This document shows positions 15,817 through 27,066 of a DNA stretch of 39,516 bases, piece after piece. This DNA comes from Oscillospiraceae bacterium (GTDB lineage: Bacteria > Bacillota > Clostridia > Oscillospirales > CAG-272), in contig SVTU01000001.1 of assembly GCA_015063655.1 (NCBI GenBank), positions 1-39,516 on the forward strand, given 5' to 3'. The position numbers and the translations under genes are program-made. The notes beneath the pieces are model-generated. The model did not search any database. It worked only from the letters and a program-made list of their open reading frames with translations, and had not been told where the DNA came from. The first letter of the stretch is position 1. Every line of letters starts with the position of its first letter.

Positions 15817-16965
15817 TCAGAGAACAGGCTCGGTCAGCTCACCGCGCACCATCACACGGTCGATGCACAGCTCGGGGGACTTCTTGAGAATGATCAGATC
15901 GGCCGACTTGCCCACAGCGATCGAACCGTAGGTATCATACACGCCAACCTCAAGACAAGGATTGCGAGTGGCACACAAAACCGCCTCACTGAGGGGGATA
16001 TCGCAGAAGCGCATCAAATTCTTAAGGCCGTCAAACAAAGACAGCGTGCTTCCCGCCAATGCTCCGTCAAGCGTGCGAGCCTTGCCGTCTACCACACGAA
16101 CGGGCTGACCTGCTATGGTATAGTCGCCGTCAGGGCAATCGGTTGCCTGCATGGAATCGGAGATCAGGACGGTGCGCTCACAGCCGAGAAAGCGATATGC
16201 CAAGCGGATCATTTCCGAGGAAATATGTACGCCGTCGCAGATCAGCTCGCCATAGGACTTGCCCTCAAACGCCGCACACACGGCACCGCCGTCACGGTGA
16301 TGCAGAGGGGGCATGCAGTTATACAAATGCGTATAAGCCGTTACGCCGTTTTTCTCAGCCTGCTTGGCCTGCACGTAATTGGCGGCTGTGTGACCGAGCG
16401 ACATGGTGGCACCCAGCTCACGGGCCTTGGCGGCAAAGCTGCCATCCTCGTCAAGCTCAAAGGCGGCCGAAATATGAAGCGCCGTATCGCCCACAAAGCC
16501 GTCAAGCTCGGAGGCCTTAAGCGGGAACAAAAGCTCGGGCGCATGCGCACCGCGCTTAGCGGCGTTGAGATAACGGCCCTCAATGTGAACGCCGCAGAAA
16601 TTAGCCTCGCCCGCCGTGCGCTTATGGGCACGCAGGTCGGCCGTAGCCTTGTACATCTGCTCAAGAGGAGCGGAAGCAATGGTGGGCATAACGGTGGTAA
16701 TACCGTTGGAGGCATACGCCTTGGCCATCACGGAAAGCAGGGCGTCGTCTGCCGAATCGAAATCACCGCCCGAGCGTCCGTGCGAATGCACGTCCACAAG
16801 ACCGGGCAGGATCATAGCACCTGCTGCATCGATCTCTTGAGCATCAGCCTGCTTGCAAACGCCAAGCTGTGTGATCACGCCGTTCTCAACCGCAATGTCC
16901 TTGCGATCAAAGCGCATTGTTTCACTGTTATAAACTAAGCCGTTTCTGATAATCATATCAAACAC
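15817..16965 (-). CDS. nagA: N-acetylglucosamine-6-phosphate deacetylase (amidohydrolase)
   Basis: LPGLVDVHSHG metal-binding motif; length and overall blocks match NagA. Confidence 0.82.
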   Translation of the reverse strand: MFDMIIRNGLVYNSETMRFDRKDIAVENGVITQLGVCKQADAQEIDAAGAMILPGLVDVHSHGRSGGDFDSADDALLSVMAKAYASNGITTVMPTIASAPLEQMYKATADLRAHKRTAGEANFCGVHIEGRYLNAAKRGAHAPELLFPLKASELDGFVGDTALHISAAFELDEDGSFAAKARELGATMSLGHTAANYVQAKQAEKNGVTAYTHLYNCMPPLHHRDGGAVCAAFEGKSYGELICDGVHISSEMIRLAYRFLGCERTVLISDSMQATDCPDGDYTIAGQPVRVVDGKARTLDGALAGSTLSLFDGLKNLMRFCDIPLSEAVLCATRNPCLEVGVYDTYGSIAVGKSADLIILKKSPELCIDRVMVRGELTEPVL

Positions 16966-16999
16966 TTCTCCTTATATGATAAATAATCTTTATTATAGT

Positions 17000-17028
17000 A
17001 TTATACCAAATATTCCCGAGAAATACAA
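17000..17028 (-). promoter_or_regulatory. Sigma-A promoter (TTGTAT-N17-TATAAT) for the nagA block
   Basis: On the minus strand the -35 is at 17028-17023 and the -10 at 17005-17000. Confidence 0.55.
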
Positions 17029-17171
17029 GGGGTATTCCAAAAGAAAACGATCATTTCCCCTAAATAATTTTGAAAAAGCAAACAAATACAAAAGCCATCA
17101 ATACGGTATCAGCTTCAAAAGAAGGATAAAAACAGCCCAGAACGGAAAAGCGTGATGTTCTTAGCGGAGAA

Positions 17172-17247
17172 TTTGAAAATCCCACTAAGTGCGAGCATCG
17201 CATTTGACCGGTCAAATGCGATGCTCGCACTTAGTGGGATTTTCAAA
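17172..17247. repeat. Perfect 76-bp palindrome: two 38-bp arms, no spacer, no mismatch
   Basis: 17172-17209, TTTGAAAATCCCACTAAGTGCGAGCATCGCATTTGACC, is the exact reverse complement of 17210-17247. The flanking bases (17171 and 17248) do not pair. Confidence 0.95.
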
Positions 17248-17483
17248 AATGCAGGAATATCTCCTGTTATGGCTTCTCCAAAGTCATGGATCAAGCACAT
17301 CTTAATGACTTTATTTATATCCACATTCGGATATTCATCAGCACAGAGCATAGCCATTACGGTCAGTCTCCATGAATGCTCGGCAACAGACTCCTGTCTG
17401 CCACTTGACGTCCAAGAATGACGAGTATTACATTTCAATTATTCAATAACATTCAAAAATTCAATGTATTTCCTACATTCCAT
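17248..17483 (-). pseudogene. HD-domain phosphohydrolase (YfbR/HD_3-like) gene remnant
   Basis: AAAGAGG RBS plus ATG at 17483 gives MECRKYIEFLNVIE. An in-frame TAA follows (17441-17439), then LKCNTRHSWTSSGRQESVAEHSWRLTVMAMLCADEYPNVDINKVIKMCLIHDFGEAITGDIPAF. Similarity stops at the palindrome, and roughly the C-terminal half of the family is missing. Confidence 0.7.
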
Positions 17484-17575
17484 TTGATTACCTCTTTGAT
17501 TGCCAGTTTCGCCTTTGTATTACAAACGCGTCGGGCAAATCCCATACCCTAAAGATGCACAAGCGCATCCATAGG

Positions 17576-17618
17576 CTCTCCCTTTGGGAGAGCTCCCGCG
17601 ATAGCGGGTGAGAGGGCA
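17576..17618. repeat. Left inverted repeat flanking the DUF559 gene
   Basis: CTCTCCCTTTGGGAGAG-CTCCCGCGATAGCGGGT-GAGAGGGCA. It contains two hairpins and ends 1 nt before the DUF559 stop codon. Confidence 0.7.
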
Positions 17619-17619
17619 T

Positions 17620-17997
17620 TTACGACAAGATTTTGATTCTCTCATTGATTACTTTATCAATCGTGAAGCAAACACCTTCAAAGTTATCATCTACGTCTTT
17701 GTTGGAAAAACGCAAAACATAAATCCCATATCTTTCAAGAATTTCAGTTCTTGCCTCATCGTGCGCTTTACCTTGATTTGTATAATGCTGTGAACCATCA
17801 AGCTCTATTACAAGACGAGCACTATGACAATAAAAATCTGCAATAAAATCATCTATGATACGTTGCTTATATATCTTCACTGGATAATATCGCAAAAAAT
17901 CATACCATAAATGCTTTTCTTGTCGAGTCATATTACGGCGCAAAATTCTCGCAACACTTAACAATTTATTGTTTTTCTTTAATTGTTTTTGCTCCAT
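17620..17997 (-). CDS. DUF559 endonuclease-domain protein (Vsr / restriction-endonuclease-like fold)
   Basis: ARILRRNMTRQEKHLWYDFLR...FIADFYCHSARLVIELDGSQH...DEARTEILERYGIYVLRFSN is the typical DUF559 signature. The gene is AT-rich. Confidence 0.85.
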   Translation of the reverse strand: MEQKQLKKNNKLLSVARILRRNMTRQEKHLWYDFLRYYPVKIYKQRIIDDFIADFYCHSARLVIELDGSQHYTNQGKAHDEARTEILERYGIYVLRFSNKDVDDNFEGVCFTIDKVINERIKILS

Positions 17998-17999
17998 TT

Positions 18000-18044
18000 T
18001 GCCCTCTCCGTCAGCTTCGCCGCCACCTCTCCCAAAGGGCGAGG
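18000..18044. repeat. Right inverted repeat flanking the DUF559 gene
   Basis: Its reverse complement, CCTCGCCCTTTGGGAGAG-GTGGCGGCGAAGCTGACG-GAGAGGGCA, matches the left repeat at both ends (CCCTTTGGGAGAG and GAGAGGGCA). It supplies the GGAGAGGG RBS of the DUF559 gene. Confidence 0.7.
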
Positions 18045-18086
18045 TTTTCGTTATCTGTTCTATTATATGACGTATTACGTACGGCT

Positions 18087-18686
18087 TTATACGTCTCTGC
18101 GTCCCTCGATGGCACGGCCGAGCGTGATCTCGTCGGCATACTCCAAATCAGAGCCGACAGGCACGCCGTAGGCAAGCCTTGTGACCTTAACGCCCAGGGG
18201 CTTGAGATATTTGGAAATATACATGGCGGTAACCTCACCGTCGGGCGTGGGATTGGTGGCAATGATGACCTCACGCACGTCGTCTGTTCCCACTCGCTCG
18301 ATCAGCTCACGGAAACGGATCTTATCGGGGGTGATGCCGTTAACGGGAGAGATCACGCCCCCAAGGACATGATACACACCACGATATTCCCTCACCTTCT
18401 CAATGGACATGACTGCCTTGACGTCCTCCACCACGCAGATCAGTCCCCGATCGCGTGAAAGGTCGTTGCACACCGAGCAAACGTCCTTATCGGTCAGATT
18501 GCCGCACACAGGGCATGCATGCACCACCCGCTTGGCCTCCAGCATCACGTCGGCAAACTCCTGCACCACCTCGTCCTCCAAGGCAAGCACGGAAAAGGCC
18601 ATGCGCATGGCAGATTTCCGCCCCACGCCGGGGAGCTGTCCAAACTGCTCGGCAAGCCGCTGCAGCGATTCAATATATTCTGCCAT
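18087..18686 (-). CDS. recR: Recombination protein RecR
   Basis: LPGVGRKSAMRMAF HhH motif, C4 zinc finger CPVCGN..CSVC, and a Toprim domain. Confidence 0.95.
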   Translation of the reverse strand: MAEYIESLQRLAEQFGQLPGVGRKSAMRMAFSVLALEDEVVQEFADVMLEAKRVVHACPVCGNLTDKDVCSVCNDLSRDRGLICVVEDVKAVMSIEKVREYRGVYHVLGGVISPVNGITPDKIRFRELIERVGTDDVREVIIATNPTPDGEVTAMYISKYLKPLGVKVTRLAYGVPVGSDLEYADEITLGRAIEGRRDV

Positions 18687-24324: not shown

Positions 24325-24343
24325 TCGTAACTGTATGTGAAAA

Positions 24344-24390
24344 AGAAAAGCGTTTCGCCGAGCTTCGGCGAAACGCTTTTCTTTTTCTTC
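24344..24390. terminator. Bidirectional intrinsic terminator between hom and the GH gene
   Basis: AGAAAAGCGTTTCGCCGA / TCGGCGAAACGCTTTTCT stem flanked by an A-run and a T-run. Confidence 0.85.
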
Positions 24391-24400
24391 AAAGGCACGC

Positions 24401-25744
24401 TCAGGCCTTTTGCTTGATCTTCAACAGATACGAGGTGTAATTGGAGAGAGTCAGCTCGGGCGTAAAACGCTCGCCGTAATAGGTCTGCTTTGCCACGAGC
24501 GAGAGATCGTGCTCCTTATCCAACACGTAATATTCGATTTCACTGCCAGCCTTGCAGCCAAAGTCACACAGATCGACCGAAACCTTTTTGTCGGCCGCCT
24601 CGTCATCATCGTTAAAATACGTCAGCATCACGGCAGCCTCACCGTCACGGCTTGCGGCACAAACGGTGACGTCGGGGTCATCCGACGAGGAAGCCACCGA
24701 CTCGCCCAAACGATACAGCACGTTAAACATATAGAAGGGATAGTAGCCCTTGAGCTTATCGCATACGATATCGGTGGAAAACATACCGTTCATCCCACAG
24801 GGACGGGCATCGTAGTACATCAGCATATCCAAAGGAAGCTCCTGACAGAGCATCATGACGGCAGCTATGAAGGCCGATCCCTTCAGGCCCTTTTCCGCTC
24901 TAAGTGAATATACCCAATCGTCACCCTCAAAACTACGAACGTAATTCCACTCGTTGAGAATGCTCTCCGCCTCGGCAAAGCCGTATTTGTCAAGCAAGTC
25001 CCTTGTTTCCTTTACTCTTTGGGCGATTTTATACGGATCACTTTTGTAACGGTGCCACGAGAAAAAGTCCAAGGGAGCCTTGAGTTGAGCGAGGAAATCC
25101 TCTGCCCATTCCATGTTGCCTGCCACAGCGGGACCGCCGATCTTGAGATGCGGGAAGCATGCCTTAAGGTGCTTGGCCGCCACGTCATACAGCTCGAAGA
25201 ACTGCAGCTTTGTTCCGCCCCAGCAGCGCTTATCTGCTTTATCGTCGGCATCAAGATCGGGCTCGTTCCAGATCTCCCAATATTCGATATCGTAATGGAA
25301 GCCGTTGGCCCAGCCCTCGGTATAGTGGCGGATGATATGCTCGCAGATCACCGCCCACTTATGAAAGTCCTTGGGCGGAAGCGTTCCGAACTTCTTAACG
25401 CCGTGCTCGATCTTAGAGCCAAGGCGATAAAAAGTCTTAACACCTGCATACTCGCACACCCTGATGTACTCATCCGTGCATTCAAACTCATACGAAGCGG
25501 GATCGTAGGGGTCTTTATCAAAGGTGCGGAAGATGTTATGTACATCCACGGTAAATTCTCGTCCGTACGTACCGTAAAAAGCTGCGTCATGGTTGCGCGC
25601 ATACGGAATGCCCGCCTCCATAAAGGCATCAATATTGGTGATGCGCTGGTCGGCGGCAAACTTGTAGACAGGACCGTTATTGACCGCATGCATGGGCTTG
25701 ACCTTCCCTGCCTTCTTTCCAAACTGAACCGATACCTGTGACAT
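24401..25744 (-). CDS. Clan GH-A glycoside hydrolase, GH39-like, paralogue 1; no signal peptide
   Basis: YWEIWNEPD acid/base motif. Start at MSQVSV with an AGGAGA RBS. Confidence 0.6.
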   Translation of the reverse strand: MSQVSVQFGKKAGKVKPMHAVNNGPVYKFAADQRITNIDAFMEAGIPYARNHDAAFYGTYGREFTVDVHNIFRTFDKDPYDPASYEFECTDEYIRVCEYAGVKTFYRLGSKIEHGVKKFGTLPPKDFHKWAVICEHIIRHYTEGWANGFHYDIEYWEIWNEPDLDADDKADKRCWGGTKLQFFELYDVAAKHLKACFPHLKIGGPAVAGNMEWAEDFLAQLKAPLDFFSWHRYKSDPYKIAQRVKETRDLLDKYGFAEAESILNEWNYVRSFEGDDWVYSLRAEKGLKGSAFIAAVMMLCQELPLDMLMYYDARPCGMNGMFSTDIVCDKLKGYYPFYMFNVLYRLGESVASSSDDPDVTVCAASRDGEAAVMLTYFNDDDEAADKKVSVDLCDFGCKAGSEIEYYVLDKEHDLSLVAKQTYYGERFTPELTLSNYTSYLLKIKQKA

Positions 25745-25761
25745 AACGTTTCTCCTATTCC

Positions 25762-27066
25762 TTAGAATTCTATCAGAACGACCGTATTGTTTTCGATCGT
25801 TTTGGCATGGGGTGCCCACGAAAGCAGGCGTTCTTCATCGATCACGTAATAACGGGCTCTAGACATATCCGCTCCCTTGATGACAAGCTCCTGCTCCTCT
25901 CCTGTCAGGTTGGAAAGCATCAAGGCTCCGTGCTTGCCGTCGGTTGCCGCCACAGCATACAGCCCCTCGGTGTCACACGTCAGTGCCGCCTGCGAGCCAA
26001 GCTGATAGAGTCGATTGAACGCCGCCATGGCATAATAGCCGTGAATGGGCTTCTTGGTCCTGATGTCAAACAACGGGCAATAGGGTGCGGTGTTGTTCCT
26101 CATGTCATAAATGCACAGCAAGGCGGGCGTACGCTCCTGCATGCCGAGCATCATGGCCGCAAGCTCGGCGGCATGGTGTGCCGTGCCGAATTCCTTACAA
26201 TAGGGATCCCATTCGTTGAGATGGTTTTCAATGTGAGACAGTCCGTATTCCTCAAGACGCTGTGCCACATACCGTTCGAAGATCAACGTGTTCTCGGTAT
26301 TGGCATAGCTGTGCCACGAGAAGAAATCAATGGGTGAGCCATGCTCCTTGACGTACGCAAGGAAGCCAAGGAAGAACGTATCGTAATACGTGTGATCGGG
26401 ATGGGTTGCCAGCTTTTCGGGGGTGTCGATTATATGATAAAAGCCACAAGAACCGTAGCCACCGATCTTAATGTGGGGAAATCTGGCCTTGAGGTGCTTG
26501 GCGGTGACGTCATACAGTCGGTACAGCTCCTCGGGCGTGCCCGACCACATCTCGGACGGTTTGCCCTTCAGGGCGTTATCAGGCTCATTCCAGATTTCCC
26601 AATAGGTGATCTTATAAGTGAAGCCGTCAGCCCAGCCCTCTGTATAGTGAGCAATCACATGCTCACAGATGCGTGCCCACTTGTGATAATCCTTGGGGGG
26701 ATCGGTGCGGTAGGTCTTAATATACGAGGCATTCTCAATGGTAACGCCAAGGCGGAAGTATGGCTCAACGCCTGCCTCTACAAGAGCCGTGATGAGAACG
26801 TCAGTAAAGGTAAAATCGTAATTGGCGGGATCGTTCTCGTCGGCATCAAAATCACGGAACAGATTGGGGATATCCACAAAACGATTGCCACCGTACGCCC
26901 CACCCACGTCATGGAGACGGGAATACGGAATACCTGCTTCGGTCAAATAGTGAAAGTACTTGTCAATAGGTTTGCTTCCAATAAGAGGCGGCTGTCCGCC
27001 ACCGTGCATCGGCTTGATCTTGCCCACGATATTGTTCATATCCAATGTAATCCTTGACATCATCAT
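25762..27066 (-). CDS. Clan GH-A glycoside hydrolase, GH39-like, paralogue 2; no signal peptide
   Basis: YWEIWNEPD, HKWARICEHVIAHYTEGWADGF and FFSWH blocks are shared with paralogue 1. There are three tandem ATGs, and the third (27060) has the best RBS spacing. Confidence 0.6.
   Translation of the reverse strand: MMMSRITLDMNNIVGKIKPMHGGGQPPLIGSKPIDKYFHYLTEAGIPYSRLHDVGGAYGGNRFVDIPNLFRDFDADENDPANYDFTFTDVLITALVEAGVEPYFRLGVTIENASYIKTYRTDPPKDYHKWARICEHVIAHYTEGWADGFTYKITYWEIWNEPDNALKGKPSEMWSGTPEELYRLYDVTAKHLKARFPHIKIGGYGSCGFYHIIDTPEKLATHPDHTYYDTFFLGFLAYVKEHGSPIDFFSWHSYANTENTLIFERYVAQRLEEYGLSHIENHLNEWDPYCKEFGTAHHAAELAAMMLGMQERTPALLCIYDMRNNTAPYCPLFDIRTKKPIHGYYAMAAFNRLYQLGSQAALTCDTEGLYAVAATDGKHGALMLSNLTGEEQELVIKGADMSRARYYVIDEERLLSWAPHAKTIENNTVVLIEF

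Follow-up and report, generated by a model that had tools for sequence, protein, structure and literature searches.

The palindrome analysed here lies in a 1.1-kb AT-rich island (positions 16966-18080) between nagA and recR, in which the GC content is 30-45% as opposed to 55-60% in the flanks. The window, by which we mean the whole 39.5-kb stretch of DNA under analysis, otherwise has the gene content of a housekeeping region (TsaD, Rex-like, DnaD-like, DnaC-like, UppP, GpsA, NagA, RecR, homoserine dehydrogenase, RecX, RecA and others) and includes an SRP RNA. The protein assignments derive from scans in which the main ORFs of the window were compared with Pfam, about ten of them without a match, and MetG, YbaB and DnaX were named from the annotations of neighbouring loci and clusters. 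The same scans revealed no transposase, integrase or protelomerase encoded in the 39.5 kb. Within the island, an intact DUF559 endonuclease-domain gene is followed by the remnant of an HD-domain gene, then by the palindrome and finally by nagA, which is encoded on the minus strand and lies downstream of the junction (Table 1). The DUF559-HD gene pair also occurs in a different genomic context on another contig (L018, 3435-4244), where it is 71.5% identical over 839 nt, and repeats of the GGGAGAG/CTCTCCC type that sit on either side of DUF559 in the window (17576-17592 and 18027-18043) recur there as well.

The palindrome is 76 bp long. Its two 38-nt arms are 100% complementary, there are 0 nt between them, and they meet at a centre that reads ACC/GGT, exactly as a sequence-only reading of this DNA had described; the nested GCGA-gca-TCGC hairpin within the arms and the mirrored peptide on both strands, to which that reading had also drawn attention, are present too. 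When the 39.5-kb window was searched with up to three mismatches allowed, the two arms were each other's sole matches, and none of 100 dinucleotide-preserving shuffles yielded a match. Folded as single-stranded DNA, the region reaches -45.4 kcal/mol, compared with -10.2 +/- 2.4 kcal/mol in shuffles (z = -14.6). The palindrome is bordered by GGAGAA on the left and AATGCA on the right, and no target-site duplication is found at these flanks.

Table 1. Features of the nagA-recR interval in window coordinates.
Feature	Position	Strand	Remarks
nagA	15817..16965	-	Pfam Amidohydro_1; NCBI product N-acetylglucosamine-6-phosphate deacetylase, MBE6556126; gene callers start at ATG 16956
Retained 5' part of conserved ~150-nt intergenic unit	17146..17216	+	71 nt, 98.6% identical to L001
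Left arm	17172..17209	+	Native part of the conserved intergenic element; contiguous with the left flank and unduplicated in L001, L020/21, L022, L023, L024 and L025
Pivot	17203..17216	.	Natural palindrome of the element, TTTGACC/GGTCAAA
Right arm	17210..17247	+	Inverted copy of the left arm; 100% reverse complement of 17172-17209
Microhomology TTTGAAAA, 8 nt	17240..17247	-	Common to HD codons F-L-K and the end of the copied arm; junction
HD_3/YfbR-like phosphohydrolase pseudogene, N-terminal 81 codons	17241..17483	-	Pfam HD_3 E = 4.6e-24, profile positions 5-73 of 165
DUF559 endonuclease-domain gene, intact	17620..17997	-	Pfam DUF559 E = 4.3e-28; upstream of the HD fragment
recR	18087-18686	-	Other border of the AT-rich spacer

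The two arms do not have the same history. The DNA to the left of the palindrome is not anonymous: joined to the left arm, it corresponds to the 5' portion of an intergenic unit, about 150 nt long, that is conserved elsewhere. The mirrored peptide gave access to this unit, since a search with it returned 11 small predicted metagenome proteins starting MFLAENLKIPLSASIAFDRSN..., and six distinct natural copies could be collected from Clostridia contigs: one in L001 (a Eubacteriales MAG; 6310-6130, minus strand), one in L020 (2013-2160) and the others from the L022-L026 contigs (L022 1620-1790; L023 2995-3190; L024 2995-3160; L025 1730-1890). The window copy occupies 17126-17216 on the plus strand, as its match to the L022, L024 and L025 units, at 86-93% identity, extends back to about 17126. 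The core of the unit, GTGATGTTCTTAGCGGAGAATTTGAAAATCCCACTAAGTGCGAGCATCGCATTTGACCGGTCAAA, is nearly invariant; the unit also has a GGGCTAAGCCC hairpin and ends in a terminator stem, AGAAAGAGAGAAC...GTTCTCTCTTTTTCT, that shows compensatory changes in L023, L024 and L025. RNAalifold found convincing compensatory changes in this terminator stem only.

These natural copies also account for the centre of symmetry. In L001 a single arm adjoins TTTGACC on one side and the window's own 26-nt left flank on the other, and the only palindrome there is one of 14 bp. Five of the six copies contain this natural palindrome, TTTGACCGGTCAAA, which spans 14-20 bp depending on the copy, (GCA)TTTGACC/GGTCAAA(TGC), and is longest in L024, where the 20 bp GCATTTGACCGGTCAAATGC consist of GCATTTGACC followed by GGTCAAATGC. 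The exception is L020/21, whose single arm lacks a perfect short palindrome (TTTGA-CTAT-TCAAA) and reads TTTGAATAGTCAAA at this place. The centre of the window palindrome coincides exactly with that of the natural unit palindrome. Beyond it the sequences part: all six natural copies run from GGTCAAA(TGC) or (YRC) into ...ATGGGCTAAGCCC... and then into the terminator, whereas the window, instead of ...ATGGGCTAAGCCC..., goes back, after the pivot, through the 28-31 nt that precede it, in reverse-complement form. The 3' part of the unit, its terminator and any match to the Gut-1 RNA are absent from the window locus.

The genomic contexts of the unit are unrelated from locus to locus. In L022, L024 and L025 it lies on the plus strand between two minus-strand genes, and it has no match in Rfam, Pfam, NCBIfam or the phage and plasmid collections. 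It could be a small RNA, a small ORF or protein (MFLAENLKIPLSASIAFDRSN...) or a DNA site. Several observations argue against a protein: a 1-nt indel creates a stop in L020, the frame is not maintained towards the C-terminus, synonymous variation is absent from the core, and there is no Pfam or NCBIfam family. A match to the Gut-1 RNA (RF01706) follows the unit within about 60-130 nt in all five loci for which downstream DNA is available (the L023 contig ends at the unit terminator): L022 1892-1962 (-), L025 1989-2065 (-), L020 2252-2323 (-), L024 3243-3317 (-) and L001 5942-6043. Gut-1 is on the strand opposite to the unit, except in L001, where a weak match of 26.7 bits lies on the unit's own strand; two matches, at 58 and 52.7 bits, exceed the gathering score of 50, and the other three fall below it. 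Gut-1 has been described from human gut metagenomes only and without a known function (PMC2864571). The linkage suggests that the unit and Gut-1 form a composite module. Finally, the sequence with which the unit starts, AAAGGGTGATGTTC, is also found at about 2895-2960 of contig L003, where another hairpin (CCCGACAGA...TCTGTCGGG) comes after it; this may reflect a shared 5' motif or chance.

On its other side, the palindrome meets the HD gene. The sequence-only reading had placed it at the break point of a decayed HD-domain gene, and the partial coverage of the Pfam profile (Table 1) agrees with this. The pseudogene retains its ATG at 17483, carries an in-frame TAA at 17439-17441 and has lost its 3' half by deletion. 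The position at which similarity ends has to be revised, however: rather than stopping exactly at the palindrome (...GDIPAF), it runs two codons further (AFLK), that is 8 nt into the right arm. The HD protein of L018 matches the window by tblastn over residues 1-81 only, with 87.7% identity and down to 17241, and the blastn matches of the L018 and L019 HD genes reach 17240. The HD homologues read GDIPAFLK(N/T) at this point, encoded by TT(C/T)TT(G/A)AAAA in L018 and L028 and by TTTTTCAAAA in L019. Thus the 8 nt at the outer end of the right arm (minus-strand TTTGAAAA) are HD coding sequence and copied arm at once, and the end of the right arm reads as an 8-nt microhomology junction with the HD gene, the ancestral bases at the junction being those indicated by homologues that are 71-80% identical in DNA and about 88-90% in protein. 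The innermost 7-10 nt of the right arm are the native half of the element's palindrome, and about 20-23 nt would be newly copied.

That neither arm, nor the DNA beyond, continues an HD protein holds for the left flank, the left arm and the rest of the window, as judged by tblastn with the L018 protein, but not for the outer 8 nt of the right arm. No remnant of the HD C-terminus was found in the window, either with the full-length L018 HD protein (tblastn) or with the C-terminal half of L019, which has no DNA match, and this bears out the earlier view, which spoke against the mere insertion of the palindrome into an intact gene. The left flank and left arm were also considered as a C-terminal HD piece (...LSGEFENPTKCEHRI up to the stop) and rejected, as the full-length L018 protein matches through residues 1-81 only.

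The HD_3 lineage is broken in every locus that we fetched: in the window (17241-17483), in L015-L017, in L018 (4001-4570), in L019 (39-609) and in L028 (684-980). The lesions differ. The window copy combines truncation with a TAA; in L015-L017 an internal deletion that runs from GDIPA to WLPGEYE puts the gene out of frame; a TAA interrupts the frame in L018, and a frameshift does so in L019; the L028 gene breaks off after NDDDEK. All of the 120 best relatives in the database measure 62-139 aa, against an expected length of about 190 aa. The lineage may thus be subject to recurrent decay, or the gene may be prone to breakage. At the L028 truncation (about 915-960), the reverse complement of the gene's own AAAAAATGACGA appears 13 nt further on, as TCGTCATTTTTT; this inverted pair may be a second scar of the fold-back type, or simply a terminator.

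Other contigs of the locus were recovered from public metagenome contigs through exact-protein look-ups. The same 76 bp with both flanks are present in three other samples, namely in L009 and L013 (both from JGI samples) and in L012 (an ENA MEGAHIT k141 contig). L012 represents a different strain, as it differs from the window by 8 SNPs between 17373 and 17506. Through one of these SNPs the TAA of the HD pseudogene is AAA in L012; none lies in the palindrome or towards nagA. Across 1.2 kb the palindrome-bearing strains are 99.3-99.9% identical (blastn), and because of this fewer than one change is expected in 76 nt. The palindrome is therefore flawless because it is young, and youth suffices to explain its perfection without recognition by a protein; very recent formation, one of three options that the sequence-only reading had offered, is the one that fits best. 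The palindrome is tolerated, since it persists in at least two strain lineages. In E. coli, palindromes are lethal or very unstable above about 150-200 bp, and one of 76 bp is shorter.

The locus is polymorphic in another respect. Contigs L002, L003, L006, L007 and L014 share the recR-DUF559 region with the window down to 17495, past which they run into genes for a MazE-like antitoxin, a 148-aa ORF and MgtC rather than into HD, palindrome and nagA. The breakpoint at 17495 is a separate rearrangement that removes the whole palindrome region. Many other contigs stop just beyond DUF559, at window positions 17506 to 17548, before this breakpoint. The exact RecR, DUF559 and NagA look-ups returned palindrome-bearing contigs or the different rearrangement only, and did not recover an unrearranged ancestor in which nagA is followed by a complete unit and a complete HD gene.

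The palindrome is real and most likely a one-off mutational scar. One of its arms is native and the other copied, the pivot is a palindrome that existed beforehand, the far end overlaps the HD gene by 8 nt, and both partners, the unit and the HD gene, are truncated. An exact reverse-complement tract, a pre-existing pivot repeat (present in five of the six natural copies) and an 8-nt distal microhomology are the hallmarks of a templated insertion. We therefore favour, with a probability of roughly 70%, a scenario in which one complex deletion left the palindrome as its scar, by way of a snap-back or template-switch templated insertion that was closed by a microhomology join. From the arrangement of the sequence, this would have been a single event, arising either during break repair of the snap-back SD-MMEJ type or by replicative template switching.

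Such an event can be pictured as follows. The ancestral locus would have carried nagA on the minus strand, a unit with its terminator on the plus strand, probably followed by a Gut-1 RNA, and then a full-length HD gene, DUF559 and recR, all three on the minus strand; a unit on the plus strand between minus-strand genes is also the geometry of L022, L024 and L025. A break or a stalled nascent strand would have left a plus-strand 3' end just beyond the unit hairpin, GCATTTGACC/GGTCAAA(TGC). This end would fold back on the hairpin or switch to the complementary strand at this place. As a fold-back without any loop is sterically impossible, priming would have to proceed through a 4-nt loop or on the complementary strand. 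Extension of the 3' end with its own strand as template would then add the reverse complement of about 28-31 nt, ...GATGCTCGCACTTAGTGGGATTTTCAAA, until the new end, TTTTCAAA, could bridge the gap by annealing to TTTGAAAA on the sense strand of HD, whereupon the join would be sealed. The product would consist of the 5' part of the unit, the perfect 38+38 palindrome and the 5' part of the HD gene, with loss of the 3' part of the unit, the terminator, the spacer and the 3' half of HD. A single event of this kind would explain a centre on a pre-existing palindrome, truncation of both partners and a unique site, and the arms would measure exactly 38 nt because the first usable match with HD lies that far from the pivot.

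The proposed event has relatives among known mutational processes, and the palindrome thus belongs to a known class of mutational scar rather than being a new element. In its sequence logic it resembles SD-MMEJ (synthesis-dependent microhomology-mediated end joining), in which inverted 'primer repeats' prime snap-back synthesis and the microhomology that is newly made in this way is used to anneal the two sides of the break (PMC5728401; PMC2943611). As in SD-MMEJ (Yu and McVey, 2010; Khodaverdian et al., 2017), a deletion is combined with an inverted templated insertion, and the sequence hallmarks of that process (a tract copied in inverted orientation, an inverted repeat that was there beforehand to serve as pivot, and an overlap at the junction, here of 8 nt) are all in the window. 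However, SD-MMEJ has been described in Drosophila and mammalian cells, depends on Pol theta and usually makes insertions shorter than about 20 nt (PMC2943611; PMC5728401), whereas the host of the window is a Clostridia bacterium and the copied tract spans about 28-31 nt. Another parallel is the quasipalindrome template switching of E. coli studied by the Lovett laboratory, in which a nascent strand changes template inside an imperfect inverted repeat and is extended along the other arm (PMC7202029). In both cases a quasipalindrome becomes longer and more perfect, but classical quasipalindrome events return to the original template and alter a few bases, whereas the strand in the window would not have returned, jumping instead to the distant HD gene with deletion of several hundred bp. 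Short natural inverted repeats beside breaks also seed larger perfect palindromes in Tetrahymena rDNA, in yeast and in the fold-back inversions of cancer, where they span kilobases to megabases and duplicate genes. Unlike these, the window palindrome halts at 38 nt, owing, on the proposed scheme, to a second, microhomology-guided switch.

It is possible that a palindrome which arose as a scar is now kept by selection, an alternative that concerns its maintenance and is compatible with the origin proposed here. The putative functional site would be a long hairpin that acts as terminator or insulator between the DUF559/HD transcript and nagA, or a protein-binding site. We regard such selection as rather unlikely. 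It is true that the hairpin is very stable (see above), that on either strand the G+C-richer portion of the stem leads into GGGAUUUUCAAA, that the deletion took away the covarying terminator of the unit itself, and that the palindrome is unchanged in L012 even though the neighbouring 130 nt hold the 8 SNPs. However, a simple consensus scan for terminators made no call at the palindrome, which has no designed loop, where an intrinsic terminator would have one of 3-8 nt, and only four U (UUUU) after its stem, low divergence between the strains accounts for its perfection without selection, and by direct reading nagA appears to have its own promoter downstream, with TGGTATAAT, near 17000-17008 of the minus strand, as an extended -10 box. 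Perhaps the new hairpin could serve as a candidate insulator that protects nagA from DUF559/HD read-through in place of the lost terminator. Like bidirectional terminators, the 76-bp palindrome is a perfect intergenic inverted repeat with A/T-rich ends on both strands. A repeat that looks like an ordinary bidirectional terminator is present at 24339-24387 of the window, between the convergent homoserine dehydrogenase and GH39 genes; it has perfect 23-nt arms, a 3-nt loop and A5/T5 at the outer arm ends, unlike the palindrome with its 38-nt arms, absence of a loop, four T only and arms that derive from another element. Next to it, the window encodes two tandem GH39-family paralogues (24401-27066) with internal direct repeats (25134-25398 and 26459-26720) that are 74-78% identical.

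A related scenario would give the unit itself the leading part. In this account an undescribed unit, widely dispersed in gut and rumen Clostridia, contains a palindrome that is recognised by a protein or prone to breakage, which would make such units hot spots of rearrangement, and the window palindrome would be a product of the biology of the unit instead of a random break, perhaps retained as a substitute terminator. We hold this, too, to be improbable. It is likewise improbable that the palindrome arose in two steps, with two units in tail-to-tail orientation fused by recombination or deletion between their identical palindromic cores, and a later deletion at microhomology trimming the right copy to 38 nt and removing the 3' half of HD. 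The unit does occur at multiple loci across genomes, its symmetric core can be aligned in either orientation, and HD genes of this family undergo many independent deletions. However, this scheme requires two events where one suffices, no locus that we fetched contains two inverted units, and the window holds no second copy of the unit. Moreover, the exact coincidence of the arm end with the 8-nt HD match is what a single templated event predicts.

A further possibility, raised in similar form by the sequence-only reading, would make the palindrome a foldback MITE, a repeat of the REP type or a site for a hairpin-processing enzyme (a protelomerase or an HUH/Y1 transposase of the IS200/IS605 type), and the perfect symmetry, the 38-nt arms and the nested mini-hairpin do give it some appeal. 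It is now largely refuted and we consider it very improbable. The palindrome is present in a single copy: no second palindromic copy was found in the window, in one genome for each of 185,579 species, or among the collected metagenome, viral, phage and plasmid sequences. The species-genome scan found one arm, non-palindromic, in L001; the metagenome scan found the arm in two contigs (L020 and L021), again as a single, non-palindromic copy; and a 30-nt arm pattern had 0 matches in viral contigs. When the whole AT-rich spacer was compared with the phage and plasmid collections, just two short unrelated matches appeared, in the plasmid collection, and the parent unit as query had no match in either. 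At the site itself, Rfam produced spurious miRNA-type long-hairpin matches only, far below threshold. A mobile element is further contradicted by the lack of a target-site duplication, by the failure of the HD gene to resume past the palindrome and by the fact that one arm is merely part of a longer conserved unit, and the housekeeping content of the window, devoid of transposase, integrase and protelomerase, speaks against a telomere-resolvase or HUH/Y1 target.

That the palindrome is an artefact of assembly or library preparation, a chimeric fold-back join, is scarcely credible. The sequence does come from a metagenome-assembled genome, and perfect inverted joins are a known class of artefact, but the identical junction with both flanks recurs in the assemblies of three other samples, which were made by different pipelines (JGI and ENA k141), one of them from a SNP-distinct strain, the inverted part measures just 38 nt between unique flanks, and a k-mer of 141, as stated in the contig name, exceeds the length of the entire palindrome.

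The locus thus provides a clean natural example, in an uncultured Oscillospiraceae of the rumen or gut, of how a short native hairpin would seed a long perfect palindrome during a deletion, with junctions that can be explained base by base, and it illustrates that a loop-less palindrome of 76 bp can be kept in more than one strain. For practical purposes, sites of this kind should not be taken for mobile elements or assembly errors. The by-products of the analysis may matter more than the palindrome itself: an unannotated unit that is linked to the orphan Gut-1 RNA, and an HD_3 lineage that is broken in every locus examined.
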